This document shows positions 232-38,657 of a stretch of DNA of 64,000 nucleotides, in pieces. A model generated the notes under the pieces. That model saw only the letters and a list, made by a program, of their open reading frames with translations. It was not told the DNA's origin and made no database searches. The position numbers and the translations under genes are program-made. How positions within the stretch are numbered: the first letter of the stretch is position 1; the number at the start of each line of letters is the position of its first letter. Source of the DNA: an uncultured bacterium (lineage in GTDB: Bacteria; Fidelibacterota; UBA2242); assembly GCA_964576275.1 (NCBI GenBank), contig CAZNUN010000004.1, positions 28,736-92,735 of the forward strand. Direction: 5' to 3'.

Positions 232-2502
232 ATGATTATGCACAGATTAAATAATACGATTAATACTCTTCGATTGACCGGCTGGATCGTAATCGTGCTC
301 ATCGCGTTTACAGGCCTCAGTCAAGCGCAGGAAATGCGCTGGATCGTCGTAGGTGAAACCCAGTGCTTTTTTATGGATTACGGCAGCGAGCTGGAGCTAG
401 TCACCAACAATAATTTTCTCAGCTGGCCGACTCAGTATGGCGATAAGCAGCATACTATGCGGCAGAAGGGCCTTTGGCTCGGATGCACCAATTATTACGA
501 TCCTCAGGAGGGCAAACAGAAAACGGTGAAAGTCATCGGCTCAGGTCCGCGTCTGCCCTCGAATCATTATACGATGATCTTCCCGCAAAATATTCAACTG
601 GTCGCGCGTTTTAGCCATCCGGTAATTACCGTAGATAAGCAAATCGGCACCAGCAATACGCTTTACGATCTGGTGGATGATTATGAGGCGGAAATGCCTT
701 GCGACCGGATAGTCGTTTCGCAGTTCAATACCTCGATAGGAGTCAGCGTTTCCCGCAAGGTGATGGCTTTTACTCAATCGGACCACGATAATTATTTTAT
801 TCAGGAATATGTTTTTAAAAATACGGGAATCTATGACGAAGATGGAAACGAATATCATCAGGATTTGGACGATTTCTGGGTTTATTTCTGCTGGCGGCCG
901 GCCTTTGCCGGGGTTACTTCTTCCGGATGGACAGATGAACCCGCCTGGGGTGCTTTCTCGTCGGAGTGGGGTACCAGCAATCTTATCCACACTCTGGATG
1001 AGCCCGGCGGACTGCGCGGCTTTTACAGTTACTACGGGCCGACTAATGCCGACAGCCACCCCCTGACGCCGGCCGAAGACTGGGGCTGTCCGAATTACCT
1101 TGAGGATGGGGTTCTGGGCTCGGCCAAATATTTGGGCGCCGCGGTGTTGTTTGCCTCGGACCCCGATGATTATGCAGCCGATGATCCGGATCAACCGACT
1201 ACGAATATCTATATCGGCAGTGATGGGACTCCGATGGAAGCTGCGGTCAGTCAGTATGATGAGACTTTCATGCAGCAACGCTTCCATATCATGACTGAAG
1301 GGCGCCTTACCACCAGTCAGGATGAGGAAGTTTTGAGCGAGATAGGGAATGACGGCTATGTAGAAGACTGGACCACCGGTAATACTTACCGCGGCACCGG
1401 CACCACCGGCGGCAGCAGTCAGGGCTGGGGTTTTGGGCCATACGATCTGGCCGACGGTGACAGCATTCGGATTATTTATGTAGAAGGGGTGAGTGGCATC
1501 AGCTGGGAAAAATGCCGGGAAGTCGGCGCCAACTGGTATGCTTATTATAAAGGCTTGGCAACCAAACCAAGTTTGTTTATGCCGGATGGCACACCGGCTT
1601 CATCGTCCAACGAATGGGGCTATAGCGATTACAATGCCTATAAACGAGCCTGGTGTGAAACCGGTCGGGACTCGGTTCTGCAAATGTTGCAGAATGCCGT
1701 GACCAACTATAATTCGGGCTATACCCTTTCTCTGCCGCCGTCGCCACCGGCCGAATTTAACGTCGAATCCGGCGGCGATCGAATTCGTTTGACCTGGAGC
1801 GAAAATGCCGCCAGCGAACCCAATTTCGATGGTTATGTAATTTACCGCTCGGAAGGCAATGTCAAACAGTACCAGACGGTTTATCAGAAAATTTTCGAAT
1901 GCGACAAAACCAATAGCGTTACGCAATTCGATGACACCACCGCCGCCCGCGGGAATAATTATTACTATTACATACAAACTAAAAGCGACGGGCTGGAAAA
2001 TAATGGCAAACCGCAATACAGCAGTCTTTTTTATACTTTGACCAGTGTGGCGGCGTACCTGCGCCGGCCGGCCGGAAATTTCCTGGAGCATGTCAGAGTA
2101 GTGCCGAATCCCTACGATATTCGCGCCCGGATGTGGCAGTTCGGCGATGATTTTCAATATGACCGGATCGCTTTCTATGAACTGCCGCCGATCTGTCGTG
2201 TCAAAGTCTATACAGAACGAGGCGACCTGATCTGGGAAAAATTTCACGACAACGGTTCCGGCGATGAACTCTGGGATTCGATGACTTCCTCGCGGCAGAT
2301 AATTGTCAGCGGCGTCTACATTCTGCATGTGGAAGTGCCGGTGGATATTTTTTCGGAAGAAAATATCATCGCCTCCCGCGATTATATCAATCCGAAAACC
2401 GGAGAACTTGAGATAATCAAGGGCGAATTGATCTTCCACAAGGGAGATAAAATGTTCTCTAAAGGCGACTCGGTCTTCCGTAAATTTGTGGTGATCAGGT
2501 GA
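232..2502 (+). CDS. secreted protein with a fibronectin type III domain and a T9SS-CTD-like / FlgD-Ig-like beta-sandwich near the C-terminus
   Basis: N-terminal signal peptide (…FTGLSQAQE). FN3-like segment (PPAEFNVESGGDRIRLTWSENAASEPNFDGYVIYRSEG). A VVPNPYD…GVYILHVEV block resembles the type IX secretion C-terminal sorting domain pattern. It lies next to a PorV-like gene. Confidence 0.55.
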   Translation: MIMHRLNNTINTLRLTGWIVIVLIAFTGLSQAQEMRWIVVGETQCFFMDYGSELELVTNNNFLSWPTQYGDKQHTMRQKGLWLGCTNYYDPQEGKQKTVKVIGSGPRLPSNHYTMIFPQNIQLVARFSHPVITVDKQIGTSNTLYDLVDDYEAEMPCDRIVVSQFNTSIGVSVSRKVMAFTQSDHDNYFIQEYVFKNTGIYDEDGNEYHQDLDDFWVYFCWRPAFAGVTSSGWTDEPAWGAFSSEWGTSNLIHTLDEPGGLRGFYSYYGPTNADSHPLTPAEDWGCPNYLEDGVLGSAKYLGAAVLFASDPDDYAADDPDQPTTNIYIGSDGTPMEAAVSQYDETFMQQRFHIMTEGRLTTSQDEEVLSEIGNDGYVEDWTTGNTYRGTGTTGGSSQGWGFGPYDLADGDSIRIIYVEGVSGISWEKCREVGANWYAYYKGLATKPSLFMPDGTPASSSNEWGYSDYNAYKRAWCETGRDSVLQMLQNAVTNYNSGYTLSLPPSPPAEFNVESGGDRIRLTWSENAASEPNFDGYVIYRSEGNVKQYQTVYQKIFECDKTNSVTQFDDTTAARGNNYYYYIQTKSDGLENNGKPQYSSLFYTLTSVAAYLRRPAGNFLEHVRVVPNPYDIRARMWQFGDDFQYDRIAFYELPPICRVKVYTERGDLIWEKFHDNGSGDELWDSMTSSRQIIVSGVYILHVEVPVDIFSEENIIASRDYINPKTGELEIIKGELIFHKGDKMFSKGDSVFRKFVVIR

Positions 2503-2515
2503 GGAGGGCAGAGAT

Positions 2516-3532
2516 ATGAAGATGAATCTAAGAATTCCACTAATCGGTTTGGCTGTTCTGGGGGTCTTAACGGAACCGAATCTGATTGCGAAAAATGTCA
2601 AACTCGCCCAAGCCGGCTTTGAATTCCTGAGTGTAGTTTCCGATGCTCAGGCGGCCGGCATGGCCGATGCCGTCACGAGTCTGGAAATGGGTTCCGGCTC
2701 ACTTTTTTTCAATCCGGCCGGCATGGCCGATATGCAAAAATTCATTGACATCACCGCCAGCGCCAATCAGTGGATTGCCGATATTCAGCATAATACTTTC
2801 AGCCTGGCTATCAGCCCGGCGCACGGCCGGTTCGGAGTGATCGGATTTACCTATCAAAATGTGAACTACGGCGATTTTTACGGCACGCGCGTCAACATGG
2901 CGCTCGACGCCGGCTATTACGACACCGGAATATTCAGTCTGGGCGCCAACGCGCTCGGCTTAGGTTATGCCAAACGCCTGACTGAGTGGTTCAATGTTGG
3001 CGGTCAGGTACGTCTGGTGCGACAGGACTTGGGCAAGAGCATTATCCCCGAAATTTCCGACGTCCCGGACACTACCGAAGTGATTGCCGAAAATGTTTTG
3101 ACGCCGCTGTCTTTTGACTTCGGGACTCAATTTAAAACCGGTTTCCGGAGTCTGGTCTTCGGCATGTCAATTCGCAATTTCTCACGGGAAATCGAATACG
3201 TCGAAGAGCCGTTCCAGTTGCCGTTGGTTTTCAATATGGGAATCTCGATGGACTTGATGGATCTGGTCGCCAAAGGTGATTCTAAACAATCTCTGTACAT
3301 GAGTCTCGACGCGAGTCACTACCGCTCGCGGTCCGAACAATTAAAAGTCGGTTTGGATTGGCGACCGCTTAAAATACTGGCGCTGAGGTGCGGCTATATC
3401 ACCAATGAAGACGAAAGCGGATTGACCTTTGGGGTAGGGCTATCGCGGTTCGGCTTCACTTTTGATTACGCCTATACTCCCTACGGTGTTTTCAACCAGG
3501 TTCAACGTCTGACCATGCGGATTTCGCTTTGA
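2516..3532 (+). CDS. outer-membrane beta-barrel protein, PorV/PorQ-like (type IX secretion associated)
   Basis: Signal peptide. The N-terminal motif GFEFLSVVSDAQAAGMADAVTSLEMGSGSLFFNPAGMAD matches the PorV/LptO hallmark (FL…DAR..GMG…NPAGLA). The C-terminus has alternating hydrophobic residues. Confidence 0.5.
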   Translation: MKMNLRIPLIGLAVLGVLTEPNLIAKNVKLAQAGFEFLSVVSDAQAAGMADAVTSLEMGSGSLFFNPAGMADMQKFIDITASANQWIADIQHNTFSLAISPAHGRFGVIGFTYQNVNYGDFYGTRVNMALDAGYYDTGIFSLGANALGLGYAKRLTEWFNVGGQVRLVRQDLGKSIIPEISDVPDTTEVIAENVLTPLSFDFGTQFKTGFRSLVFGMSIRNFSREIEYVEEPFQLPLVFNMGISMDLMDLVAKGDSKQSLYMSLDASHYRSRSEQLKVGLDWRPLKILALRCGYITNEDESGLTFGVGLSRFGFTFDYAYTPYGVFNQVQRLTMRISL

Positions 3533-3549
3533 ACGATAGGAGGGAAAAA

Positions 3550-4719
3550 ATGAGTATTAAACACATATTATTTATTTCCGCCTTCTGCCTGTTGATGATG
3601 CGCTGCGAATATGAGGTCGCTCAACCGGTCTGGTATGATGATTTTACCGAACCGGCGACACCAACGATCTCGGTGGTCGAACCGTCCGCCGCGACCGCCG
3701 GGTGCAATTATATTACGATCACCGGTGAAAATTTCAGCGGCTCGCCGGATGTCTATTTTGATAACGTCGCTGCAGATGTTTTGTCTTTCTCCAAAACATC
3801 TTTAACTGTACGACGCCCGAATCTGGTCAGCGACTCAAGCATAGTAAAGGTGGTATGTGACAGCGCTATTGTCGTGGCAAAGTACAGCCCGTATCAAATA
3901 ACCAAAGTATTGGACAGTTATGGCAACTTTCTGGAGGATATCGTTCTGAAAGCGTTAGCTGTTGACGATCAGGAGAATCTCTATATAATTGACGCCGACA
4001 AAACTATATACAAGGTAACGCCAGGCGGTGAAAAGAGCGTTTTAACCTTGGACGCGGCTTTGTCAAAAACCCCGACCGATGCCTGCTATCGGGACGGCGC
4101 TCTCTATATTCTGGAAAACAACCGCCCAATCGAAAAAGTCGATCTAAGCACCGGCGTAAAAACCCGCTATGCCCAATTGCCCGCCGGGAAAAAAGGCGAT
4201 TTCGGCGCGTTTGATTCTCTGGGCTATTATTATGCCGGCGGCGCCGGGACTGGCTTGCTGATTGTGACCCCCGACCTTACGAGTAACAAAACCGATTATT
4301 ACCTCGCGGATACGATCAGCGCTATTCAGGTTTGTGGAGATTACTTGTATCTCGGCGTAAAGCTCCAAAACGATGCTTCTTCAGCGATCATCAGACATCC
4401 GCTCAGCAGTGGCAGCGTCGGCGATCCGGATACCCTGATTCAGTTGCGGAATACTGAATTTGCATCCCGAAAAGTTACCGGATTGGCGTTTTCAGCCGAT
4501 GGAAAAATGTATCTGGCGACCGATGCGGTCAATCCATTTCTGGTTTACGATTTTGATTCCGGTCAGCTGGACTACTTTTATAAGGAGATTCTGCCGTCTT
4601 ATTGCAAGAAAATCTATTGGGGCGGCGCGAATTATCTCTACATGATTACCGGCGACGATGCTGCCGACGAGGACTGGACGGTGTACCGCGTAGATATGGG
4701 ATTCGCCAGGAAAACCTGA
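3550..4719 (+). CDS. lipoprotein with an IPT/TIG-like domain and NHL/beta-propeller-like repeats
   Basis: Lipobox (…LLMMRCEYE). IPT-like segment (ITITGENFSGSPDVYFDNVAADVLSFSKTSLTV). Repeated Y/D-rich blade-like segments. A good RBS (aggaggg) lies before the ATG at 3550, and the gene overlaps the upstream stop. Confidence 0.5.
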   Translation: MSIKHILFISAFCLLMMRCEYEVAQPVWYDDFTEPATPTISVVEPSAATAGCNYITITGENFSGSPDVYFDNVAADVLSFSKTSLTVRRPNLVSDSSIVKVVCDSAIVVAKYSPYQITKVLDSYGNFLEDIVLKALAVDDQENLYIIDADKTIYKVTPGGEKSVLTLDAALSKTPTDACYRDGALYILENNRPIEKVDLSTGVKTRYAQLPAGKKGDFGAFDSLGYYYAGGAGTGLLIVTPDLTSNKTDYYLADTISAIQVCGDYLYLGVKLQNDASSAIIRHPLSSGSVGDPDTLIQLRNTEFASRKVTGLAFSADGKMYLATDAVNPFLVYDFDSGQLDYFYKEILPSYCKKIYWGGANYLYMITGDDAADEDWTVYRVDMGFARKT

Positions 4720-4801
4720 TTTTTTAGTTCAAATCTCTGACGATAAACCGGCCGATTTCTCTCCGAAACCGGCCGGTTGCTTTCTTCCTCACTCTGATAT
4801 T

Positions 4802-7615
4802 TTATAACCGGATAGTTTGTTGCTCACCCGTGTATTTAATGACCTTGTCGGGCTGCGGGGTGCTTTCTATTCCGGTGCCATGGCCAGGTCTGACTAATAC
4901 CACCTGAAATTGTCGTTCGGTCAGCATGCCGGGAAAAGAACCATTGCGCGGCCCGATCGTCAATTGCTTTTTAGCGTCGTTCCACTGGAAGGTAATCGTG
5001 GCGTAAATCCCTTTCTCGTAATTGTAATTATCGTTCTCGTCCTCGTAGAGCGTGAAACTGCCATCCGCGCCGGGATAAATCCGCAGTTCGAGCGGATCGG
5101 CCGGTTTTTCAGTGGCATATTGTACGAACGGTCCAAGCGGCACGACCGAACCGGCTTTAATCAACAGCGGAATTTTATCGATCGGAGCGTCAGCCGTTAT
5201 GCTTTGACCGCCGGTATAGGTTGCCCCGGTCCAGAAATCGATCCAGGCCGTTTCGGCGGGCAGGTATACCGACCGGGTTTGCGGGCGCGGTTCCATAGTC
5301 TTTTCGCGTGCGAACATTTCCGGCGTTTTCCAGTTCAGGATCATCTTAGCGGCGCCGGTGGAACGATTCTGCATTTCTAGCCGAAAATCGTATTCCCGTC
5401 CGGCTTCCAGTCTGACCGTATCCGTGTACTGTTCGACGCTGGTATAGACGATCGGAAGTTCCTTGCCGTCGATGAAAAGACGTTTGGCGTCGTAACTAAT
5501 CAGGTGAAACTGATACGAACCACTTTCCGGCGGAGACAGTTTGCTCTCCCAGCACACCGCGAATGCGGAATCGGTCATGTAATCCGGCCGGCCGGTGTAC
5601 CACAGGTGATTGATGTCGGGCTCGATTTGCTTGCGGGACAGGTCGGCGAAATCCGGATTGTGGTAATATTTGACCTTCAGGCCCGGCTTGCCGTCGGCAG
5701 TTTGGAAATATTGCGGTGAGATCAGAACGCTTTTCTCCGGCGGGCGGTGCAACATATATTCGGTGACGGGACAGACCATAACTGATGGGCCGAACATATA
5801 TTGATCGGCGATTGCATAAGTCTTTTGGTCTTGCGGGAAATCCATCGGCAGGCCGCGCATCATGGTATAACCTTCATCGGTTACCCGCCAGGCCAGCGAA
5901 TATATGTAGGGCAGCAGCCGGTAGCGCAGATTATCGAATTTGATCAGGTTTTCGGAAAACTCGCCGAATCGCCAGATTTCACGGGGCGTCTCACTGCCGT
6001 GCGCCCGGAAAATCGGGCAGAATGTCCCGAACTGGAACATGCGGGTATAGAGTTCCTGGTAAGCCGGATCCTGACCGCCGTGAATGAACACTCCGCCGTA
6101 AGCTCCGATCACGAATCCACCGATGTCGAAAGTCCAGTAAGGCACGCCCGCCATACAGAAATTCAGCCCGGCGCTGATCTGGTCGCGGTAAATCTCCCAG
6201 CTGGCGCCGATGTCGCCCGACCAGGTCGTCGCAGCGGCCCGCTGCTGTCCGGCATACACCGAACGCGTCAGCATGTAAACGCGCTTTTGTTCGGATTCCC
6301 GGCGCTGATTCTGGTAGAGTTTATCCATCATCACCAGCGAATAGGCATTCAGGTAACGCGCCCAGCTGCCGAGGTAATTATTCTCGACCTTTTTCATTTC
6401 GTATTCTTCGGCCGCTTTGGTGGTGGCATTGATGATGTCCGGTTCGGTGGAATCGATCCAGAGCGCATCAATCCCGGCGGAAATCAGCCCTGTTTTAACA
6501 TAAGACCAGTAGAGATCGTTGGCGTCCGGATTGAAGGCGTCGAAATATTTGAATGAAGCCCAGCCGACGGTATTAAACAGGTAACCGCGGGCGGCCATAT
6601 CTTTATGGATCGGCGTATTGGGTCCCAGCCCCGGCCAGATCGAGATCATGATGTGAAAGTTTTGGTCGTGGATGCGCTTAATCATGTCCTTCGGTTCGGG
6701 ATACCTTTTCGGGTCGAAAGACATCGCACTCCAATTGGCATTGTCGCCCCAGTAATTCCAGTCCTGGATAATATTGTCAACCGGAATGCGCCGCTGGCGA
6801 TACTCCTTGACAACGTCCAGCAATTCATCGCGGGTATGATAATGCTCCTTGCTCTGCCAGTAACCATAAGCCCACTTGCCGTACATGGGCGCTGACCCGG
6901 TCAGCTGGCGGTAGCCGCCAATCACCGCGTCCATATTCGCGCCGCCGATCAGGTAATAATCGAGATTGTCGCCGACTTCCGACCAGAGCGACATAGTTGT
7001 GGCGGTATCCTGGAAAACAGTCTTGGAATAATTATCCCACAGGATGCCCCAGCCGTTGGTCGAGATCAGGAAGGGCGTCACGGCGTCGGTATTGGTCTGG
7101 ACGAGCGTTACGCTCCGCCCGCGGTAATTCATATAACCGTTCTGATGCTGCCCGAGGCCGAAAAGTCCCTCGTCCGGCGTCAGTTTGAAATCTTGCTGCA
7201 CGCTGAAAGCCTTTTCGCCGCCGATGGTGAGCGGGTCGATGACGGTATTTTTCGTTTCTTTAAGGATTATTTGGCCATCGGCAGTGAAATATTCGATATG
7301 CCCGTCGCGCTTCGAGAGTTTGAGGGTCATCTGCCCGGTTTTCAGCACCACGGTGTTGCGATTATCCTTAATGTCAATCGGTATTTGCGGCAGGCTGTCC
7401 CGGATAACCATCAGGCTTACTTTTTCCGGAGATGATTCCGGCCGCCATTTCACGACCCGGGCGATGTTGCCGGCATGAAATTGAACCCGGACATTCAGGT
7501 TTTTGGTTTCTAATTGCAATCCGTTTTGTATTGACGTTGTTTTACCCGGCTGGCCGCATTGCGAGCATGCCAGCAGGGCTGTCGTAATAAGATAAATCCC
7601 GCGAGTTTTCATCAT
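4802..7615 (-). CDS. glycoside hydrolase family 31 (alpha-xylosidase/alpha-glucosidase-like) with a PA14-like insertion; lipoprotein
   Basis: GH31 catalytic block DAFNPDA…W…GIDALWIDSTEPD (cf. DFTNP…WIDMNEP). A KWAYGYWQSKEHYHTRDEL region. PA14-like segment (VKYYHNPDFADLSRKQIEPDINHLWYTG). Lipobox LLAC. 937 aa. Confidence 0.8.
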   Translation of the reverse strand: MMKTRGIYLITTALLACSQCGQPGKTTSIQNGLQLETKNLNVRVQFHAGNIARVVKWRPESSPEKVSLMVIRDSLPQIPIDIKDNRNTVVLKTGQMTLKLSKRDGHIEYFTADGQIILKETKNTVIDPLTIGGEKAFSVQQDFKLTPDEGLFGLGQHQNGYMNYRGRSVTLVQTNTDAVTPFLISTNGWGILWDNYSKTVFQDTATTMSLWSEVGDNLDYYLIGGANMDAVIGGYRQLTGSAPMYGKWAYGYWQSKEHYHTRDELLDVVKEYRQRRIPVDNIIQDWNYWGDNANWSAMSFDPKRYPEPKDMIKRIHDQNFHIMISIWPGLGPNTPIHKDMAARGYLFNTVGWASFKYFDAFNPDANDLYWSYVKTGLISAGIDALWIDSTEPDIINATTKAAEEYEMKKVENNYLGSWARYLNAYSLVMMDKLYQNQRRESEQKRVYMLTRSVYAGQQRAAATTWSGDIGASWEIYRDQISAGLNFCMAGVPYWTFDIGGFVIGAYGGVFIHGGQDPAYQELYTRMFQFGTFCPIFRAHGSETPREIWRFGEFSENLIKFDNLRYRLLPYIYSLAWRVTDEGYTMMRGLPMDFPQDQKTYAIADQYMFGPSVMVCPVTEYMLHRPPEKSVLISPQYFQTADGKPGLKVKYYHNPDFADLSRKQIEPDINHLWYTGRPDYMTDSAFAVCWESKLSPPESGSYQFHLISYDAKRLFIDGKELPIVYTSVEQYTDTVRLEAGREYDFRLEMQNRSTGAAKMILNWKTPEMFAREKTMEPRPQTRSVYLPAETAWIDFWTGATYTGGQSITADAPIDKIPLLIKAGSVVPLGPFVQYATEKPADPLELRIYPGADGSFTLYEDENDNYNYEKGIYATITFQWNDAKKQLTIGPRNGSFPGMLTERQFQVVLVRPGHGTGIESTPQPDKVIKYTGEQQTIRL

Positions 7616-8058
7616 TTTCCCTCTTTTATGACCGTTTAGAACGAACCGGCCGCATTTCCCCGTATACTCAGGTCGCTTCGTCTTTATAAAAACCGCTTAA
7701 ATCATGCCGGACTGATTTTAAAAAATTACATCCATGAAAACAAGGCTTTTACAATTTTTACCGCCGAACCAGGCGACAGTAATTTTTGCCGCGGATAAAC
7801 GCCGATATTTACTGATGTTTTTTAAAAGCATAATAGCGCATCGTTGCCCGCCTTATACCTGAAACCAGATTGGTCTGGATTGCCCGGGACTGGAAACCGG
7901 TTTTTCTGGAAATGTCTGAACGCTCCCGCGAATAGGTTTACCCGACCATTAATTCCCCCTTGAAAATCGCGCTGCGGTTGCTTAACATTAAACGTGTGAG
8001 TGATTATTGAAATCAAAGATCAGCGCCAACGCTCGATGATTCAAGCAAAGGAGGAACC

Positions 8059-10440
8059 ATGAAACCCCGCGATTTATCGAAAAGAACGCCCCTGTCTGCC
8101 AAAGAACTGTCTCTGCTCGATGCCTACTGGCGGGCCGCCAATTACCTGTCAGTCGGCCAGATTTACCTCTTAGCCAATCCGCTGTTGAAGGAGCCGCTCA
8201 AACTCGAGCATATCAAACCGCGTCTGCTCGGACACTGGGGCACGACCCCCGGCCTGAATTTCATCTATGCGCATCTCAACCGCCTGATTAAGAAATACGA
8301 CCTGAACATGATCTACATAACCGGGCCCGGACATGGCGGACCGGGGTTGGTAGCCAATACTTATCTCGAAGGCACCTACAGCGAAGTTTACCCGAATATT
8401 TCGCCGGATGCCGAAGGGATGCAAAAACTCTTCAAGCAGTTTTCCTTTCCGGGCGGAATTCCCAGCCACGTCGCCCCGGAAACCCCCGGCTCGATTCACG
8501 AAGGCGGCGAACTCGGTTACGCCCTGGTGCATGCCTACGGGGCGGTTTTTGACAATCCCGATTTAATTGCCTGCTGTGTAGTGGGAGACGGCGAGGCCGA
8601 AACGGGCGCCTTAGCCACCAGCTGGCACTCTAATAAATTTCTCAACCCGGTGCACGACGGAGCGGTTTTACCGATCCTGCACCTGAACGGTTATAAAATT
8701 GCCAATCCGACCGTGCTGGCGCGCTTAGATGACGATGAATTGATTGAACTTTTAACCGGCTACGGCTACAAGGTTTACTGCGTGGCCGGCGACGAGCCGC
8801 AGAAAATGCACCAGTTGATGGCGGCCACCCTTGAGGCGGCGATTAAAGAGATTAAAGTCATTCAGGCCGAAGCCCGTAAGAACGGCTTTACGAAGCGCAA
8901 ATCCTGGCCGATGATCGTGATGCGGACGCCCAAGGGCTGGACCGGCCCGCAATTCGTGGATGGTAAAAAGGTCGAAGGCACGTTCCGTTCGCACCAGGTT
9001 CCGCTGTCCGAATTGGCGAAAAAGCCCGATCATGTGCGCATGCTGGAAGAATGGATGCGCAGCTACAAGCCGGAGGAGTTGTTCGATGAAAACGGCAGAC
9101 TGCGTCCGGAGCTAGCGGCCCTGGCTCCGACCGGTCAGCGCCGCATGGGCGCCAATCCGCATGCCAACGGCGGTCTGCTTCTGAAAGACCTGAAGATGCC
9201 GGATTTCCGCGATTACGCTGTGCCGGTACTCAAACCCGGTACGACTGAAGCCGAATCGACCCGCGTCATGGGACAGTTTCTGCGCGATGTCATGAAACTC
9301 AACCTCGCCAGCCGCAATTTCCGGGTCATGGGGCCGGATGAAACCGCGTCCAACCGGCTCGGCGCACTCCTGGAAGTTACCGACCGCATGTCGAGCGCCA
9401 ATATTCTACCGGATGACGAACAGGTCTCACCGGACGGCCGGATCATGGAAGTGCTCAGCGAACACATGTGCCAGGGCTGGCTGGAAGGCTACCTGCTGAC
9501 CGGGCGGCACGGCTTTTTCTCCTGCTATGAAGCCTTTATTCATATCATCGATTCAATGTTTAACCAGCATGCCAAATGGCTGAAGGTCACGCGGCATATC
9601 CCGTGGCGCCGGCCGATCGCCTCGCTCAATTACCTGCTGACTTCGCATGTCTGGCGCCAGGATCATAACGGTTTCAGCCACCAGGATCCCGGATTTATCG
9701 ATCATGTAGTCAATAAAAAGGCTGAAATCGTGCGCGTTTATCTGCCGCCAGATGCCAATACGCTGCTCTCGGTCACCGACCACTGCCTCCGCAGCCGTCA
9801 TTATATCAATGTCATCGTCGCCGGAAAACAACCGGCCCTCCAATTTCTGGACATCGACGCCGCCATTAAACATTGCACAACCGGGATCGGCATTTGGGAA
9901 TGGGCCAGCAACGATCAGAACGGTGAGCCGGATGTCGTCCTGGCCTGTGCCGGCGATATTCCCACCCTGGAAACCCTGGCGGCGGTTGACCTGCTGCGCC
10001 AGAATTTCCCCGACCTGAAAATCCGGGTCATTAATGTCGTCGACCTGATGACGTTGCAGCCGTCCGGCGAACATCCGCACGGTTTGTCCGAAAAGGAATT
10101 CAATTCGCTTTTTACGACCGACAAACCGATCATTTTCGCTTTCCATGGTTATCCGTGGCTGATTCATCGCCTGACCTATCGCCGGGCGAATCACGTAAAT
10201 CTGCACGTGCGCGGCTACAAGGAGGAAGGCACCACGACCACGCCGTTCGATATGGTGGTGATGAATGACCTGGATCGCTTCCATTTAGTCATGGATGTCA
10301 TCGAACGGGTGCCGAAACTGGAACGTATCGGCGCGCATGTCAAGCAGACAATGCGCAACCGCCTGATCGAACATAAACAATATATCATGCGCGTTGGGGA
10401 CGACATGCCGGAAATCCGCGACTGGAAGTGGCCGTACTAA
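8059..10440 (+). CDS. xfp: xylulose-5-phosphate/fructose-6-phosphate phosphoketolase
   Basis: 793 aa. The N-terminus (…[19 protein letters not shown]…[11 protein letters not shown]) and TPP-binding regions are typical of Xfp. Strong RBS (aaaggagga). Confidence 0.95.
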
Positions 10441-10785: not shown

Positions 10786-11868
10786 ATGAACGAATCCAAA
10801 CGCAAGATTACCCGCACTGTGCAGGTCGGCAATGTCCCCATCGGCGGGGGCTTTCCGATTCCGGTTCAGTCCATGACGACCGCCAAAACGCACGATCTGG
10901 ATAAAATTCTGCCGCAAATCGAAAGACTCGAAGCCGCCGGCTGCCAGATTATCCGGATAACCGTTCCGGATGAAGCTGCGGTTAAAGCCCTGCCGGAAAT
11001 CCGGAAACGCATGACCGTGCCGTTGGTGGCCGATATTCATTTCGATTACCGGCTGGCGCTGGGAGCCATCGATGCCGGCGCCAATAAAATCCGCATCAAT
11101 CCCGGCAATATCGGCGGCGCTGAACGAGTAAGAGCCGTGTTGTCGAAAGCCCGCGCCGCCCGGGTGCCGATCCGCATCGGGGTCAATTCCGGTTCGCTGG
11201 AGAAGGATTTGCTGGCTAAATATGGTTCGGCGACGCCGGCCGCCATGCTGGAGAGTGCCCGCCGCCACCTGGAAATCTGCGAAGAAAATGATTTCCGCGA
11301 CGTCATCGTGGCGCTGAAATCCAGCGAAGTCGGCCTGATGATCGCCGCCAACCGCCTGTTTGCCGAACATTACGATTATCCGCTGCACCTGGGAGTGACC
11401 GAGTCCGGCCCGGCCTGGTCCGGCACGATCAAGTCGGCGATTGGGATTGGCACACTGCTGGCGGAAGGCATCGGCGACACCCTGCGGGTTTCACTGACGG
11501 CCGATCCGGTCGAGGAAGTCCGCGCCGGTTTTGAAATCCTGAAAGCCCTGGATTTGAATCCCAATGGTATTCGCTTAGTGTCCTGCCCGACCTGCGGGCG
11601 CACCTCGGTCAATCTGATTGAAATCGTTACGGAAGTCGAACAAAAGATCCGTGACATTAAGAAAAACCTCACCGTGGCCGTTATGGGCTGCGAAGTCAAC
11701 GGTCCCGGGGAAGCCCGCGCCGCCGATCTCGGCATTGCCTTTGGCAAAAACGTGGCTTTGTTGTTTAAAAGCGGCCAGGTCGTCGCCCGCCTAAAACCGG
11801 AGGAAGCTGTGCCCCGGTTATTGCTGGAAATCGAAAATTGGAACCCGACAGAAAAGGAGATTCCATGA
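10786..11868 (+). CDS. ispG: 4-hydroxy-3-methylbut-2-en-1-yl diphosphate synthase (IspG/GcpE)
   Basis: Full-length IspG-like; C-terminal 4Fe-4S motif VSCPTCGRT…GCEVNGPGEA. Confidence 0.95.
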   Translation: MNESKRKITRTVQVGNVPIGGGFPIPVQSMTTAKTHDLDKILPQIERLEAAGCQIIRITVPDEAAVKALPEIRKRMTVPLVADIHFDYRLALGAIDAGANKIRINPGNIGGAERVRAVLSKARAARVPIRIGVNSGSLEKDLLAKYGSATPAAMLESARRHLEICEENDFRDVIVALKSSEVGLMIAANRLFAEHYDYPLHLGVTESGPAWSGTIKSAIGIGTLLAEGIGDTLRVSLTADPVEEVRAGFEILKALDLNPNGIRLVSCPTCGRTSVNLIEIVTEVEQKIRDIKKNLTVAVMGCEVNGPGEARAADLGIAFGKNVALLFKSGQVVARLKPEEAVPRLLLEIENWNPTEKEIP

Positions 11869-12560
11869 TGAATAAAATTACATTTGCTTGTTTATGCTTT
11901 TTACTCAGCAGTACTATTTTGGCTCAGGAGCCGGCCGCGCCGGCGGTTACTTCGCCGGACACGACCACCCAAATTCCGGCTGCCCAAGCCCCCGCTCAAC
12001 CCGTCCCTGAAAACCAGGTCAATTTACCGCTCGAACCGTTACCAACCGAGCCGTCGGTCACGGATACGGTTGCGCCGGTTATCCCGGAACCAACTCCGCA
12101 GGAGCAGACATCGGCGCCCCGTCCGCCGGTTGCTCCGGGTTTAATTCCGCCGCAGCCAGTTCTGCCCTTGATCGCGCCCAAAACAGCCCAAATGAAACCT
12201 TCGGAGACGACCAATTACGCCCAGATGATCTATTGGAAATCACTGACTAAGGACGAGAAAAAAGTATTTCTGGATGCCTATCTTTTTAGGACTTACGAGA
12301 CGCTCGAACAAGTCAAAAGGTTACCGGAAATGAAATCAGCCATCAAATCATTTCAGAAAAAAATCGCCGATCCGGTCTTCGATCTTTTCCGTCCTCTCAA
12401 TGAAAAGCAGAAAGACGACCTGGTGTTCTGGATTGACATTTTTTACCGTAATGATCTGAACAAGGATAAAAACTTTTATGAGGCTCTGCGATATGCCGGT
12501 GAAAAAATGAAGGTCGGTCATCGCTCAATGCACGAGATTTATCAGGAACATAACGAGTAA
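11865..12560 (+). CDS. secreted proline-rich hypothetical protein
   Basis: ATGATG start overlapping the ispG stop (ATGA). Signal peptide MMNKITFACLCFLLSSTILAQ. Long P/A/T/Q-rich linker followed by a charged C-terminal domain. Confidence 0.45.
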   Translation: MMNKITFACLCFLLSSTILAQEPAAPAVTSPDTTTQIPAAQAPAQPVPENQVNLPLEPLPTEPSVTDTVAPVIPEPTPQEQTSAPRPPVAPGLIPPQPVLPLIAPKTAQMKPSETTNYAQMIYWKSLTKDEKKVFLDAYLFRTYETLEQVKRLPEMKSAIKSFQKKIADPVFDLFRPLNEKQKDDLVFWIDIFYRNDLNKDKNFYEALRYAGEKMKVGHRSMHEIYQEHNE

Positions 12561-17416: not shown

Positions 17417-19291
17417 ATGCGCGCGCTAATTATCGGCACCGCCGGACACATCGATCACGGAAAATCGGCGCTGGTGAAAGCCCTTACCGGAACCGATCCG
17501 GACCGCCTGGCCGAAGAGCAGGAGCGCGGCATGACAATCGATATCGGTTTTGCCTTCCTGAATGACAAGATCGCTTTTATCGATGTCCCCGGGCACGAAC
17601 GTTTTATTAAAAATATGGTGACCGGCGCGGCGACGGTGGAGGTTGCCATGCTGGTGATAGCCGCGGATGACGGCGTCATGCCACAGACCCGCGAACATCT
17701 CGAGATTCTCAAATTACTGGGAATTCGCAACGGTTTAATCGTCATCAATAAAATCGACCTGGTGAAAGCCGATTGGCTGGAGATGATTACCGAAGACGTC
17801 CGGCAATTGGTCAAGGGCTCGTTCCTGGAAAATGCGCCGGTTTTCAAGGTCTCGGCCGTCACTGGAAGCGGTCTTTCCGAACTGCGTCGCTATTTAACCG
17901 AATTGCCGGCCGGAATTCCTGAAGTGCAATCTTCCGGGCTATTTCGTTTGCCGGTCGATCGCGTTTTTTCAGCCAAAGGTTTCGGCACGGTTGTAACCGG
18001 GACAGTGCTTTCCGGTGCGGTCAAAGTCGGGGATGAAGTCGAGATTATGCCGACCGGTCAGCGGGTGAAAATCCGCGGTCTGCAATCGCATAATAACACC
18101 GTTGGTTCGATTGCCAGAGGGCAGCGGGCGGCGCTCAATCTGGCCGGCGTCACGCGCTCGGAAATCGAACGCGGAATGCTGATCGTTACGCCGGGCGCTT
18201 TTCGCAAAACAAACCTGCTGACCGTTTATCTGGAATCTTTGCCGCAGTCCCCGCCGATCAAATATAATGATCAGTTGCGCTTGCACCTCGGCACCGGCGA
18301 ATATATCGTACGGATTCGTTTGATCGGGCGCGATCAATTGTTGCCGGGAACGGTTGGAATAGTCCAATTAATTTTCGGGCGACCGGTTTCCGCCGGCTTC
18401 CGGGATCGATTTATTCTGCGTTCATATTCGCCCCTTGAAACAATCGGCGGCGGCATAGTACTGGAAAACTGCCCGGAGCCGCTGCGGAAAAAAGACCTGG
18501 CGGTGGCGGCCGGACTTGAAAAGTTGGTCGCGGCCGGTTATGATGAATGGCTGAAGTGGCTGGTTCTCCGTCGCGGTAAGCAATTGACTACGACCGCAGA
18601 ATTATCGCAAGCCCTGACCGTCTCGCCGGATGAGATCGCCGCGCTGCTGACGCGATTGATTGACGGCAACGTGCTGCGCGAGATTAACGGAAAACTGATC
18701 GCCGCGGAGCAATTCAGCGCAAACACCGAAAAGATTATTACAACCCTGACGGACTTTCACCGCAAAAATCCGCTTCTGAACGGTCTGGAGAAAGCCACTT
18801 TATACGGCCAATTGCATCTGGAAGAAATGCTCGGCGACGGGCTGATTGATGAATTAAATAAGGCCGGAAAGGTTAATTTGCTTGGCGATAAATTGGCGCT
18901 GGCCGGCTTTACGCCGCAGTTGAATAACGGGCAAACCTCGCGGCAGGAACGAATTCTCGCGGAGATCGTCGGCTCCGGTCTGACTCCGCCAACGTTGACT
19001 GAACTGGCCGAAAAATTCCAGACCGACCCGGCGGAACTGCGCCAATTGATTAACCTCCTGATCGAACAACAAAAAGTGGTGCTGATCGACCGGATTTTTC
19101 CGTTCAGCACTACAACGCTTGACCAGGCTGGGGAACGGCTTACCCAATTTTTACAAAGGAAAAGCGCGGCGACGGTCAGCGAATTGAAAGATGCGCTCGG
19201 CGTTTCGCGCAAATATGCCATACCAATTTTGAATTATTTCGACCAGAAAGGAGTGACGGTGCGAAATGGTGATCTGCGCAGGCTGGGATAA
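17417..19291 (+). CDS. selB: selenocysteine-specific translation elongation factor SelB
   Basis: GTPase G1 motif (GTAGHIDHGKSALV). EF-Tu-like domains plus the C-terminal winged-helix extension typical of SelB. The last ~107 bp (19185-19291) are duplicated in divergent form at 21599-21705. Confidence 0.9.
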   Translation: MRALIIGTAGHIDHGKSALVKALTGTDPDRLAEEQERGMTIDIGFAFLNDKIAFIDVPGHERFIKNMVTGAATVEVAMLVIAADDGVMPQTREHLEILKLLGIRNGLIVINKIDLVKADWLEMITEDVRQLVKGSFLENAPVFKVSAVTGSGLSELRRYLTELPAGIPEVQSSGLFRLPVDRVFSAKGFGTVVTGTVLSGAVKVGDEVEIMPTGQRVKIRGLQSHNNTVGSIARGQRAALNLAGVTRSEIERGMLIVTPGAFRKTNLLTVYLESLPQSPPIKYNDQLRLHLGTGEYIVRIRLIGRDQLLPGTVGIVQLIFGRPVSAGFRDRFILRSYSPLETIGGGIVLENCPEPLRKKDLAVAAGLEKLVAAGYDEWLKWLVLRRGKQLTTTAELSQALTVSPDEIAALLTRLIDGNVLREINGKLIAAEQFSANTEKIITTLTDFHRKNPLLNGLEKATLYGQLHLEEMLGDGLIDELNKAGKVNLLGDKLALAGFTPQLNNGQTSRQERILAEIVGSGLTPPTLTELAEKFQTDPAELRQLINLLIEQQKVVLIDRIFPFSTTTLDQAGERLTQFLQRKSAATVSELKDALGVSRKYAIPILNYFDQKGVTVRNGDLRRLG

Positions 19292-19664
19292 GACATCGGG
19301 GGAAAAGCATTAATTGTAAAAATCAAATAGAAATGATTAAAATACTCACTAATAGTACCCGCTTTTATTAGAATTGAAGTTAAATGTAAGAAAACAGTTA
19401 TTTCCTTTAAACCAATAATGAAAGAAGGAATTTCAGTGATGTTTAACGTTGATTCGATTTTATCTGCTCCATTCTGGCCTGAGCTTGTTTGAGTAATAGC
19501 TTCAGATACGATTGATGAAGATACCATCAGAGTTCAAGCAGAGGGAATTGCCACTGGTAGATATTACAAACGGCTGATTGATTATAAGGATTTAGATTAA
19601 ATCAGCATTGAAGAAGAAACGCGCTTGAAATTCAACGAAGACGCTGAGAAATTCTTCTTATTCA

Positions 19665-20036
19665 TTGAATCACATCAAATCCGAAATGCTTTCATCGAAA
19701 GAGATTGAATTGATCGGCATGAATGTCGCGATGGAATATGAAACCGAGCGCGGGCGCAAACCAGAAGATGTATCGCTGAAAAACCTTGGTTATGATATAC
19801 ATTCTATTAGTGATACTGAAAGCGAACATCGTTATATCGAAGTAAAAGCGAGTGCCAAGGAAGGCGGAATTCTTCTGACCCAAAATGAATGGTTTATGGC
19901 ACAGAGACTAAAAGATGAGTATTGGCTTTATATAGTCAGCAATGCAATTTCAAATCCGAAACTCTTTCTTATTCAGAATCCTGCCGCTAAATTACAACCT
20001 GCCGAGGTAATTGAAACCGTGAGATACGTTATTTAA
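19665..20036 (+). CDS. DUF3883 domain protein (restriction-endonuclease-like fold), possibly the C-terminal remnant of a longer gene
   Basis: GYDIHSISDTESEHRYIEVKAS…LTQNEW…YWLYIV matches the DUF3883 core (D…EVK). Upstream 19440-19660 holds short broken reading frames, suggesting truncation. Confidence 0.6.
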   Translation: MNHIKSEMLSSKEIELIGMNVAMEYETERGRKPEDVSLKNLGYDIHSISDTESEHRYIEVKASAKEGGILLTQNEWFMAQRLKDEYWLYIVSNAISNPKLFLIQNPAAKLQPAEVIETVRYVI

Positions 20037-20081
20037 AACCGGAATAAAAGTAACATTATCACCACCGATTGAAATAACACA

Positions 20082-21449
20082 ATGAATAACGAAGAATTAA
20101 GATTATTAATCCAACAGGGAGAATCGGAAACGATTGAGTTTAAGGAAAACTTCGGGAATGAAGCTATTGAATCTGCCGGAGCTTTCGCCAATACCCGCGG
20201 TGGACTAATTCTGATCGGAGTTAACAGACATGGTCATATAAATTGTGTTCAGGCGACTCAGGAAACGTTAAAAGATTGGGCTAATCAGGTTGGACAATGT
20301 AGTGAACCCACATTTACGCCATTATTTGAAATTGTTCCGACTGACAACGGTAATGTTGTCGCTATTCACATCAGTGAATATCCGCTCAAACCGGTTTCGA
20401 TTCGCGGCAGATTCTATCGACGGGTCAATGCCAGCAACCATCAGATGATACCAGATGAAATCGCACAGATGCACCTTTATTCAATCGGTTCCAGCTATGA
20501 TGCCATCTCAAGTCCGAACGCAACTCTCGATGATATATCAGAAGATAAAATCAGAGATTATTTGCAGAAGGCTAACGCTACCGGACGCCGGAATTATGAT
20601 ATCAGTCGACCACCTCTTCAAATACTTGAAAAAGTTGAATTGATCAAATCGGGCAAGCCGACTATTGCTGCAGTTCTATTATTTGCAAAAGAACCTCATA
20701 ATAAAATTCACCAGGCTATCGTACATTGCGGGCGATTTAAGGAACTCACTACTATTATCGATGACCGATTGATAGAAGGTACAATTATTGAGCAGATTGA
20801 CGAAGTTATGGCTTTCCTGCGGAAGAACACCAGCGTTCGTTTTGTATTTACCGGAAAACCCGAACGTGAAGAAGTCTGGGATTATCCATTGGAAGCTCTG
20901 CGGGAAGCCGTAACGAATGCCATCTGCCACCGCGACTATGGCAATACCAGCGATATTCAAATTAAAGTTCACGACGATTATCTGACAATTTGGAATCCGG
21001 GCGGACTATTACCGGGGATGTCAATCGAGGAATTGTATGATCCTAATCATTCTTCCAAACCCCGCAATCGGCTAATCGCCCAGGTTTTTAATGACATTAA
21101 ATTGATCGAAAAATACGGTTCCGGCATCCAGCGTATCTTAACCGAATGTGCAAAAGTCGGCATTCCGGCCCCATCGTTTGAAGAGAAGTTCGGTGGCTTT
21201 CTGGTAACCTTCCGAAAGGATATTTACACTGAAGACCATCTTAAAGCCATGGGATTGAACGAACGACAGATAAAGGCCGTAGTATTTACAAAAAAGAATG
21301 GTAAAATAACAAATAAACAATATCAGGAAATAACCGGCATCCAGAAACGACAAGCCACTGTTGACCTTCAGGATATGGAAAATAAAGGAATACTCACAAA
21401 GGTCGGAAAAACCGGTAGAGGAACCTTTTACACCCTAAAGGGGCATTAA
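20082..21449 (+). CDS. COG2865-type ATP-binding protein: Schlafen/AlbA_2 DNA-binding domain, HATPase_c_4-like domain and C-terminal wHTH
   Basis: AlbA_2 hallmark (ESETIEFKENFGNEAIESAGAFANTRGGLILIGV) at the N-terminus. C-terminal HTH (…ITNKQYQEITGIQKRQATVDLQDMENKGILTKVG). Confidence 0.7.
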   Translation: MNNEELRLLIQQGESETIEFKENFGNEAIESAGAFANTRGGLILIGVNRHGHINCVQATQETLKDWANQVGQCSEPTFTPLFEIVPTDNGNVVAIHISEYPLKPVSIRGRFYRRVNASNHQMIPDEIAQMHLYSIGSSYDAISSPNATLDDISEDKIRDYLQKANATGRRNYDISRPPLQILEKVELIKSGKPTIAAVLLFAKEPHNKIHQAIVHCGRFKELTTIIDDRLIEGTIIEQIDEVMAFLRKNTSVRFVFTGKPEREEVWDYPLEALREAVTNAICHRDYGNTSDIQIKVHDDYLTIWNPGGLLPGMSIEELYDPNHSSKPRNRLIAQVFNDIKLIEKYGSGIQRILTECAKVGIPAPSFEEKFGGFLVTFRKDIYTEDHLKAMGLNERQIKAVVFTKKNGKITNKQYQEITGIQKRQATVDLQDMENKGILTKVGKTGRGTFYTLKGH

Positions 21450-21488
21450 TGGGGCAAAAGGGGCATTAAAGGGGCGTTAATGGGGCAC
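21440..21488. repeat. tandem ~11-bp repeat (ggggcattaat-like, ~5 units) overlapping the 3' end of the COG2865 gene
   Basis: ggggcattaatggggcaaaaggggcattaaaggggcgttaatggggcacag. Confidence 0.7.
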
Positions 21489-21598
21489 AGACCTTCTGAA
21501 CAGATTGGACATCATTGTCCGAAAAACCCGAAATGCTTCTAATAAATGATACCAAATACACCAGTAAAACAAGACAATAAAATGGATATCACTCCTTT

Positions 21599-21705
21599 TG
21601 AAAGATGTGCTCGGCGTTTCGCGCAAATACGCCGTGCCGCTCCTGAATTATTTCGACCGGAAAGGCGTAACGGTGCGCAGCGGCGACCTGCGAAAATTAG
21701 GATAA
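21599..21705 (+). pseudogene. displaced native 3'-end fragment of selB (attR-like remnant)
   Basis: 107 bp aligns to selB 19185-19291 at ~85% identity, differing mostly at synonymous third positions. It encodes …[34 protein letters not shown] versus …[34 protein letters not shown]. It has high GC like the host. Confidence 0.85.
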
Positions 21706-21724
21706 AAGTTGTAAGGATTAACAA

Positions 21725-22918
21725 ATGAATATAAAAGTATTAATTAAAAAAGATCGTGAGAAGTCGCTCCTGCGTCATCATCCCTGGCTTTTTTCGGGGG
21801 CGATCGAGAAAGTCGTCGGTGAACCGCAAGCGGGCGAGACGGTCGAGTTGCGGGCGTATGACGGTTGTTTCCTGGGACATGGCGCCTGGTCGCCGCAATC
21901 CCAGATTATCGTGCGGGTCTGGAGTTTAGATGAGAACGAAGCCATTGATGCGGACTTCTTCCGGCGCCGATTGGAACTGGCTGTCAACGAGCGCCAGTCG
22001 CTTTTAATTCCGGGTATGACCGATGCCGTGCGCCTGGTTAATGCCGAATCGGACGGTCTGCCGGGCTTGATTGTCGACCGGTACGGCGATTTCCTGGTCG
22101 TTCAATTTTTATCGGCCGGAACGGAACACTGGCGCGATACAATTCTGGCAACCTTGGCTGACCTGAAACCGGTCGCCGGAATTTACGAACGCTCGGATGT
22201 GGATGTGCGCGAGAAGGAAGGTTTACCGCTGCGCCAGGGTTTGCTCTGGGGCAGCGAGCCGCCGGAATTCATCACGATTCTGGAAAATTCGCGGCGCTTC
22301 TTAGTCGATGTGCGCCGCGGGCACAAGACCGGCTTTTACCTTGATCAGCGCGACAACCGGCAAAAGATTACGGAATTCGCCGCCGGACGCGAAGTGCTGA
22401 ATTGTTTTGCTTATACCGGCGGATTCTCGGTTGCGGCGCTGGCGGCCGGGGCGACTAAAGTGACAAACGTGGAATCTTCCGCTGATGCATTGGAATTGCT
22501 GAATCGCAATGTTGAGCTGAATGATTGCGAACCGACCAAAGTCGAGAACCTGGCCGATGACGTGTTCCTGGCGTTGCGCAAATTTCGCGACCAGGGACGC
22601 TCTTTCGACCTGATCGTGCTCGACCCGCCCAAGTTTGCCGAATCGAAGAGCCAACTCGAACGCGCCAGTCGCGGCTACAAGGACATCAACCTGCTGGCCT
22701 TCAAACTCCTGCGCCCGGGCGGAGTGCTGTTCACCTTTTCCTGTTCGGGGCAGATGACGCCGGAACTTTTCCAGAAGATCGTGGCCGATGCCGCTCTGGA
22801 TGCCGGAAAAACCGCCCAGATTATCGCGCGGCTTGAGCAGTCCGCCGATCATCCGACGGCGCTAAATTTCCCGGAAGGCCATTACCTCAAGGGACTGGTC
22901 TGTAGAACTGTTAAATAG
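21725..22918 (+). CDS. rlmI: 23S rRNA (cytosine1962-C5)-methyltransferase RlmI-like (PUA + class I SAM MTase)
   Basis: N-terminal HHPWLFSGAI (YccW/RlmI). SAM motif (VLNCFAYTGGFSVAA) and DPPKFA motif. Confidence 0.85.
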   Translation: MNIKVLIKKDREKSLLRHHPWLFSGAIEKVVGEPQAGETVELRAYDGCFLGHGAWSPQSQIIVRVWSLDENEAIDADFFRRRLELAVNERQSLLIPGMTDAVRLVNAESDGLPGLIVDRYGDFLVVQFLSAGTEHWRDTILATLADLKPVAGIYERSDVDVREKEGLPLRQGLLWGSEPPEFITILENSRRFLVDVRRGHKTGFYLDQRDNRQKITEFAAGREVLNCFAYTGGFSVAALAAGATKVTNVESSADALELLNRNVELNDCEPTKVENLADDVFLALRKFRDQGRSFDLIVLDPPKFAESKSQLERASRGYKDINLLAFKLLRPGGVLFTFSCSGQMTPELFQKIVADAALDAGKTAQIIARLEQSADHPTALNFPEGHYLKGLVCRTVK

Positions 22919-36905: not shown

Positions 36906-37003
36906 CCTAAACTCAAATTATAACGCAGGCGGGTCTGCCACTTCAGGTTTGCTTTGTGATATCCAGGGTTAAAATAATACGATCCAGCTGCGCAATCTTT
37001 TAC

Positions 37004-37502: not shown

Positions 37503-37510
37503 AATACTCT

Positions 37511-38485: not shown

Positions 38486-38657
38486 GTATCAAAATACAAG
38501 TCCCGCAAATTCTCAAGACCGGGGGTTGATTGGCAAACCTGCTTTCAAATTACAGGATAAACTGTCAGAGCTTACATAAAAAATAACTACATGGTAAATA
38601 ATATAGAAAAAAATTGAAAAAACAATTAAAAAATATTGAGTAGATGCTTTTAGGGGG

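Follow-up and report, generated by a model that had tools for sequence, protein, structure and literature searches.

In a 64,000-nt stretch of DNA from an uncultured bacterium of the Fidelibacterota lineage UBA2242 (contig CAZNUN010000004.1; hereafter the window), the 3′ end of the translation factor gene selB occurs twice, once at the end of the gene itself and once downstream, just before the neighbouring gene rlmI. Comparison of the two ends with those of relatives makes it very probable that a foreign gene end arrived together with a fragment of a defence cassette at a hotspot, where it displaced the native end. The islet left between the two copies is the scar of one horizontal-transfer event, and no evidence of mobility was seen. 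As for the route, we favour with moderate confidence an insertion that was anchored by homology and independent of an integrase.

The end of selB is present twice

The two copies form a gap-free direct repeat of 108 nt (19184-19291, copy 1; 21598-21705, copy 2). They share 87 of 108 bases (80.6%), and both stand in the selB frame and terminate with TAA. A first-pass annotation of this DNA had reported a repeat of 107 bp (19185-19291 and 21599-21705) at about 85% identity; the repeat itself holds and extends one base further at its 5′ side, whereas the identity figure was too high. The 21 differing bases, 13 of them at third positions, are spread over 16 codons, of which ten are synonymous and six encode conservative replacements (A/V, I/V, I/L, Q/R, N/S and R/K). 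To call the differences almost all synonymous, as had been done, was therefore an overstatement, although Nei-Gojobori counting, used here for all dN and dS values, gives 14.5 synonymous against 6.5 non-synonymous differences.

The 2,306 nt between the copies (19292-21597) contain 40% guanine plus cytosine (GC), against 54% for selB and 56% for rlmI, which places the islet 15 points below its host and bears out the early description of the intervening 2.3 kb as AT-richer. The same annotation had noted a higher GC content in copy 2 than in copy 1. The direction is right (54% versus 47%), but the difference (58/108 versus 51/108) is not significant alone (Fisher p 0.41). GC at third codon positions (GC3) is 0.50 in copy 1, 0.64 in copy 2 and 0.62 in the host selB gene.

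The repeat is most alike at its 5′ end. There, a block at 19184-19215 is identical at 31 of 32 positions, including a perfect run of 21 nt (19195-19215), and identity falls to 74% beyond it. This block also encodes the conserved LGVSRKY motif, and relatives differ there by only 1-7 mismatches; it is a candidate crossover zone, a role inseparable from the conservation of the SRKY motif. Exactly two occurrences of the perfect 21-nt block were counted in the 64 kb where none would be expected, so the repeat is not due to chance. Moreover, the same selB-islet-rlmI structure was present in all contigs recovered from independent assemblies (JGI, NCBI and Logan; several samples), at an identity of at least 99.8% to the window, so it is not an assembly artefact.

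The distal copy reproduces the native junction

Between the two copies dS is 0.94, dN is 0.088 and dN/dS is 0.09. For comparison, whole selB genes of the window and of the sister species L092 and L094 differ with a dS of 0.92-1.03 and a dN/dS of 0.14-0.16. If one copy had drifted neutrally throughout, so few non-synonymous changes (6-7 of 21) would be found with a probability of 0.002-0.007. Because the copies diverge like orthologues of different species, under purifying selection, duplication in place followed by drift is rejected. Judging from this divergence, the two gene ends would have evolved in different genomes and have been joined recently.

The gene order sua5-ABC-selA-selB-rlmI-cupin-HisKA_7TM is kept in relatives, with synteny on both sides of the junction in L092 and L094. 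The junction itself was found in the following states:

L125: SelB 77% identical; selB-rlmI gap of 20 nt, empty
L120: SelB 69% identical; selB-rlmI gap of 17 nt, empty
L121-124: SelB 63% identical; selB-rlmI gap of 9 nt, empty
L012: SelB 53% identical; selB and rlmI overlap, empty
L092/L093: SelB 77% identical; junction holds an O-methyltransferase gene
L094: SelB 76% identical; junction holds a 6-kb island with HATPase_c_3 and an MmeI-like methyltransferase
L095: SelB 52% identical; junction holds a Na/sulfate symporter-type transporter gene

In four related lineages (L125, L120, L121-124 and L012) selB is thus directly followed by rlmI, which is the ancestral arrangement. The first-pass annotation had tied its proposal to the existence of such empty sites and to the alignment of the two segments; empty sites do exist in these four lineages, and the segments align. 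Since the remaining relatives hold different cargo at this place, the selB/rlmI junction is a gene-turnover hotspot in the clade; the names attached to the closest SelB proteins mark the organism as Marinimicrobia/Neomarinimicrobiota-like. The L094 island (2099-8147) encodes a HATPase_c_3 protein of 771 amino acids (aa), two unknown proteins and an MmeI/Eco57I-like N6 methyltransferase of 618 aa, and it has no selB-end duplication. Indeed, no duplicated selB end was seen at the occupied junctions of relatives, and a second selB end was absent from 79 other selB loci giving a C-terminal match as well as from L012, L092, L093 and L094.

In the window, copy 2 together with the 19-nt spacer that follows it and rlmI matches the empty junction of L125, ribosome-binding motif included. 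The spacer belongs to the same length class as those of L125 (20 nt) and L120 (17 nt) and carries the same GTAAGGA/ACAAGGA motif. Because copy 2, spacer and rlmI reproduce the empty-site junction, the comparison shows copy 2 as the native end and copy 1 as the incoming one. The individual differences point the same way. Over the 21 differing sites, five relatives give 55 supports for copy 2 and 40 for copy 1. Copy 1 has seven states found in none of the five (19220, 19222, 19225, 19226, 19229, 19252 and 19266), six of which are changes to A or T and which cluster at 19220-19229; copy 2 has two private states, in its last few bases, and its every amino-acid state is found in clade relatives. 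Over the first 80-92 nt of copy 2, identity to the selB ends of L092 and L094 is 92%. For copy 1, identity to the selB ends of the clade is 80-87%, and because the 86% identity to that of L094 lies within clade diversity, the source of copy 1 would be a related selB. The early claim that the end now terminating selB is foreign, and that the distal copy is native and displaced, agrees with all of these observations. When the copy-1 peptide was used to look for the donor lineage, the matches were just three short fragments, all unrelated; in the context of one match, P0242, selB is cut by the contig end.

The islet and its neighbours

The features of the locus are as follows:

17417..19291, + strand: selB, 624 aa, intact, chimeric (host body and foreign last ~76-108 nt)
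19184..19291, + strand: copy 1, incoming (xenologous) selB 3′ end, now terminating the gene
19292..19438, + strand: spacer from the foreign selB stop to hmaA, 147 nt, AT-rich, ~30% GC
19439..19693, + strand: 5′ fragment of an hmaA pseudogene, 85 codons, with in-frame stops at 19490 (TGA) and 19598 (TAA)
19680..19693, + strand: junction of the internal hmaA deletion, where BLAST segments overlap and both L010 flanks align across
19680..20036, + strand: 3′ fragment of the hmaA pseudogene (NOV_C/DUF3883; Pfam NOV_C E 3.7e-25), residual open reading frame (ORF) 19665-20036
20082..21449, + strand: AlbA_2 (Schlafen-like) plus HATPase_c_4 gene, 455 aa, intact (Pfam)
21450..21593, + strand: cassette tail, homologous to the albA-hmaB intergenic region of relatives (BLAST)
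21594..21597, no strand: right junction CCTT, joining the cut-off cassette to what remains of the native selB end; L010 similarity stops at 21593 and selB homology runs from 21598
21598..21705, + strand: copy 2, displaced native selB 3′ end
21706..21724, + strand: native selB-rlmI spacer, 19 nt, with an AAGGA ribosome-binding site
21725..22918, + strand: RlmI-like 23S rRNA m5C methyltransferase gene, native neighbour (Pfam PUA_3 and Methyltrans_SAM)

The islet aligns with parts of an Hma (helicase-methylase-ATPase) locus. Positions 19439-19693 match the first 255 nt of hmaA at 82% nucleotide and 80% amino-acid identity (to the intact 1105-aa HmaA of L010, L095 and L096), and positions 19680-20029 match its last 350 nt at 85% nucleotide identity (L010 2986-3335). 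Between these two parts, hmaA has suffered an internal, frame-shifting deletion of 2,687 nt at a GAAATG..TC microhomology. The AlbA_2 gene follows (aligned over 20081-21487), with 81-82% DNA identity to L010, L095 and L096 and 88% to L097, and then the downstream intergenic region (21448-21593), with 72-74% identity (L010 4913-5082; L095 11424-11593). There the similarity stops: L010 continues for 110 nt past the matched region to its next gene, relatives run on towards hmaB, and the right edge of the islet falls inside the cassette, in the albA-hmaB intergenic region.

In relatives, the AlbA_2/HATPase_c_4 gene is an accessory gene embedded between hmaA and hmaB. The closest homologues of the 455-aa protein (84% aa identity in L010 and 69% in L011) are each encoded after an intact SNF2/NOV_C helicase of 1103-1105 aa. 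The L011 helicase matches PADLOC HmaA (E 7e-215), and its locus goes on with HmaB (DUF1156 methylase), embedded candidate systems and HmaC (DUF499); Hma systems with embedded genes have been described (Payne et al. 2021, PMC8565338; bioRxiv 10.1101/2024.01.29.577857). Neither hmaB nor hmaC is present in 21450-21597, and the window has no intact Hma system of HmaA helicase, HmaB methylase and HmaC ATPase. These alignments show the islet to be a truncated piece of an Hma locus, decaying except for the embedded gene, which alone is intact. The AlbA_2/HATPase_c_4 gene has its full length, is well conserved and probably still works on its own, as the sole functional cargo.

The same cassette lies 220 nt downstream of rlmI in the species represented by L095, L127 and L128, whose SelB and RlmI are 52% and 70% identical to those of the window. 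Because the cassette is conserved at 81-88% DNA identity whereas the core proteins reach only 52-70%, it has moved horizontally between lineages, landing beside the same core genes at another junction.

Two further features of these cassettes were observed. About five copies of the motif GGGGCRTTAAW, spaced by 10-11 nt, span the stop codon of the AlbA_2/HATPase_c_4 gene (21436-21487); L010, L095 and L096 have kept this array, to which a protein may bind inside Hma loci. In addition, one species is represented by three independent assemblies (L095, L127 and L128), and each of them breaks off within the Hma locus, 130-550 nt past the AlbA_2 gene (about 11520-11950), which suggests strain-variable or repeated content at the embedded-gene position.

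On the host side, the selB product passes the curated selB model (TIGR00475, 385.5 bits versus a cut-off of 242) and has the Pfam GTP_EFTU and SelB winged-helix domains, with PF09107 at residues 578-623. The RlmI-like product matches the NCBIfam RlmI model (E 1.7e-150), under its equivalog cut-off, and is 85-87% identical in amino acids to those of L125, L092 and L094. All of selB, the islet genes and rlmI share one orientation, and a + strand terminator was not found between selB and rlmI, nor a convincing promoter around the islet. Given this single orientation and the lack of such a terminator, readthrough from selB into rlmI can presumably still occur; rlmI also keeps its own ribosome-binding site. 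The 147-nt spacer (19292-19438) gave no BLAST matches, and its local alignments with the beginnings of rlmI genes and with the L095 and L096 spacers that precede hmaA were not significant (best shuffle p 0.10).

Two details of annotation concern selB itself. The copy 2 remnant starts with TTG, and in some assemblies it was called automatically as a 35-aa ORF with a PF09107 winged-helix match (L004 4741-4848). In one assembly only (L001, JGI 3300029799), a G-to-T change at the equivalent of position 17900 of the window splits selB into ORFs of 161 and 455 aa; either a sequencing error or a variant in the population whose selB is inactivated could account for it.

How the foreign end was joined to selB

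We propose the following scenario. DNA from a related genome or replicon would have entered the cell with the last ~100 nt of its selB, the 147-nt spacer and an Hma cassette with the embedded AlbA_2/HATPase_c_4 gene, and it would have recombined into the selB/rlmI junction, a variable hotspot. The left join would have been made via selB homology, so that host selB continues into the foreign end and the gene remains intact. The right join would have been non-homologous, with the albA-hmaB intergenic region fused to host selB 108 nt before its stop codon, and the native end, its spacer and rlmI would have been displaced 2.4 kb downstream. The route could be homology-facilitated illegitimate recombination or, equivalently, the single crossover of a circular fragment by a RecA-type mechanism. 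Subsequently, hmaA would have decayed through its two stop codons and the 2.7-kb microhomology deletion, which spared the AlbA_2/HATPase_c_4 gene.

This scenario is in keeping with the left junction, which lies in sequence that donor and recipient have in common, within or upstream of the selB homology. The homology-anchored route needs a single event, and the single crossover of a circular fragment needs no donor tract upstream of the repeat. On the right side, in comparison with L010, the cassette ends at 21593 and is followed by CCTT and by host selB from 21598. The data establish the insertion, the origins of the two copies (foreign for copy 1, native for copy 2), and what the cargo is and that it has decayed; we infer both the enzyme involved and that the right junction is original rather than the product of a later deletion.

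Other observations weigh against the homology-anchored route. A donor in which selB is followed by the 147 nt and then hmaA was not found, and the spacer matches nothing. The contigs of the species all share at least 99.8% identity, which leaves no within-species variation to date or polarise the event; every contig with the exact RlmI or AlbA_2 protein carries the islet, so that the lack of an empty site within the species has no power. The window-specific changes at 19091-19198 run, with low power, 3 to A or T versus 12 to G or C, like the rest of the host gene. Because changes there run to G/C, there is no sign of a donor tract upstream of 19184, either by GC3 or by the direction of window-specific changes, both of low power; a linear-fragment model would predict such a tract. 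Furthermore, the repeat is nearly perfect at its 5′ end and then drops to 74% identity, the pattern expected of a crossover in a short att-like core, and the overall layout is that of the integrase-driven element e14 at icd.

These last points favour a different origin, which the first-pass annotation had put forward: an element with a tyrosine or serine recombinase, carrying a mimic of the selB 3′ end in its attP, would have crossed over in the 21-32-nt block and would later have lost hmaB, hmaC, int and part of attR. Such an origin is possible, although we regard it as rather doubtful. In its favour, the architecture matches that of e14 at icd/icdC, with an end duplicated up to the stop codon and mostly synonymous differences; the longest identity stands at the 5′ end of the repeat, upstream of which a donor tract could not be detected; and since the islet bears other deletions, the loss of an integrase is plausible. 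However, Pfam finds no recombinase among the ORFs of the islet, as had been noted from the start, and no excisionase or other mobile-element gene; these ORFs are the NOV_C fragment and the AlbA_2/HATPase_c_4 gene and nothing else, and the islet is bordered by core genes in conserved synteny. Since the islet ends on the right within the cassette, this origin calls for one more deletion, with an endpoint in attR or at its edge. The block of high identity falls on the conserved SRKY motif, and relatives are just as similar there.

The search for related elements argues against it as well. In the flanks available, related cassettes are unlinked to integrases or to selB-like DNA. Among 2.9 million viral contigs there was no 21-mer core, no AlbA_2 relative and no SelB C-terminus, and the arrangement does not recur in the 79 other selB loci. 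In those of the 79 loci with enough downstream sequence, 133 ORFs lie downstream of selB; no integrase was found among the 25 most frequent of the 139 Pfam families that they match, these 25 being matched by at least two ORFs, so that single matches may exist. The target is selB and not a tRNA gene, as first described; neither within the islet nor beside it is there a tRNA or an integrase gene, and Rfam gave only a tRNA-Lys in the window. The claim of an integrative element with a gene-end mimic in attP is therefore not supported, for no recombinase, attP-like relative or recurrence was found in these searches, and the cargo edge lies inside the cassette. It is not demonstrated by these data, and we consider it less likely than the integrase-independent route.

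A third explanation would make both copies the host's own selB end, diverged in place after a long target duplication of the kind known for restriction-modification genes. The islet does have defence genes between long direct repeats that map to one single-copy target, and it has no mobility genes (criteria in PMC2853133). Nevertheless, we hold this explanation to be very improbable. At 80.6% identity and a dS of 0.94, the copies would be as old as the split from species with 77% identical SelB, in which the islet is absent. The dN/dS of 0.09 has the low probability given above if one branch was neutral, the copy that is odd among relatives is the functional one and not the remnant, and in GC the islet still lies 15 points under its host.

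Finally, assembly chimaera or chance similarity, for which the metagenomic origin of the sequence and nothing further speaks, can be practically dismissed, because every contig recovered, from three sources and several samples, has the structure, and the match includes a 21-mer found twice where none was expected, is in frame and reaches the stop codon.

Two candidate signs of the donor's structure were tried and rejected. A stub of the rlmI 5′ end after copy 1, as a chromosomal donor with the order selB-rlmI-Hma would leave, was seen only as two mutually inconsistent weak alignments (shuffle p 0.10 and 0.6). Mosaicism of rlmI as a sign of co-transfer was likewise rejected, RlmI identities tracking SelB identities.

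Other features of the window

Two genes, for an N6_N4 DNA methylase (57951-58919) and a BglII-like endonuclease (58883-59530), make up a type II restriction-modification pair in a second low-GC islet (57951-59530, 34-38% GC), which lacks a recombinase and is not flanked by a long direct repeat. Between core genes, a kilobase of 40% GC contains the gene of a 23S rRNA-intervening-sequence protein (PF05635; 45052-45552, − strand). The GC content is also low (37-39%) at 37001-39000. This stretch surrounds the window's single tRNA gene, for tRNA-Lys (38786-38859, − strand), next to which are ORFs for a weak glycoside-hydrolase-like protein and a phosphofructokinase, and no integrase was seen there.

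Significance

The locus is a clean natural case of a housekeeping gene that was kept intact across an insertion by the incoming DNA's own gene end. The scar is of a known kind, and it does not change the understanding of integration. The wider interest lies in the selB/rlmI junction as a turnover hotspot in an uncultured, digester-associated Marinimicrobia-like clade, where lineages differ in what they hold (an Hma fragment, a defence-like island with a methyltransferase, an O-methyltransferase or a transporter), and in a cassette that is 81-88% identical in DNA next to the same core genes although the core proteins of the lineages concerned share only 52-70% identity. There is also a consequence for annotation: the 35-aa "SelB winged-helix" ORF before rlmI should be read as a remnant, and the NOV_C ORF of 116 or 123 aa as a pseudogene fragment.

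One could further imagine that integrase-less Hma/AlbA_2 cassettes spread among Marinimicrobia by means of mimics of core-gene ends (that of selB, and perhaps that of rlmI in the L095 lineage), inserted by a recombinase acting in trans or by a dedicated route of gene-end capture. We regard this as an unlikely speculation; if true, selB would be a new attachment target and the islets a new class of non-autonomous defence islets. As an integration target selB is apparently unreported in the literature searched, which gave author-name matches only, and there is no sign of recurrent targeting.

Comparison with known systems

The cargo resembles the intact Hma systems of L010, L011, L095 and L096, with an hmaA homologue and an embedded accessory gene that are ordered and oriented alike. 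In contrast to the Hma system defined in PADLOC, hmaA is a pseudogene in the window and hmaB and hmaC are missing, and the AlbA_2/HATPase_c_4 gene has no specific PADLOC family, with only partial matches to pAgo-associated models.

Long target duplications with restriction-modification genes (Nobusato 2000; Furuta 2010, PMC2853133) likewise show repeats of more than 30 bp, a single target that is often at the 3′ end of a gene, and no transposase or integrase. In those cases the target is the source of both repeats, whose identity is about 90-100%, whereas the selB copies differ like orthologues of different species; the islet thus shares the repeat length, the defence genes, the lack of mobility genes and the single target, and it lacks the near-identical, target-derived repeats.

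The element e14 of E. coli K-12 (PMC13626634), which encodes intE and xisE and is excised on SOS induction, offers the closest parallel for a site-specific integration. At icd/icdC, for e14 as for phage 21, incoming DNA supplies the 3′ end of a housekeeping gene and the native end becomes a pseudogene fragment at the far junction. The e14 duplication also ends exactly at the stop codon and its differences are mainly synonymous: we measured 165 nt at 92.7% identity, with 10 synonymous and 2 non-synonymous differences. The islet has, like e14, repeats with the gene rebuilt in frame and empty sites in relatives. It has no encoded recombinase, and neither recurrence at the target nor an attP form was found among the selB loci, cassette flanks and viral contigs searched; it differs as well in its size of only 2.3 kb, in its truncated defence cassette and in its more diverged repeats (80.6%).

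The homology-anchored displacement of a 3′ end without mobility genes that we propose has a precedent in type VI secretion system (T6SS), Rhs and contact-dependent inhibition (CDI) loci (PMC5361080). In the T6SS effector/immunity, Rhs and CDI arrays, too, a conserved upstream segment anchors the incoming DNA, a new 3′ end and its cargo take over, and the old 3′ end is left downstream as an orphan; mobility genes are unnecessary. There, the genes encode polymorphic toxins and the displacement is recurrent and selected, whereas at selB a single event exchanged equivalent ends of a translation factor gene.

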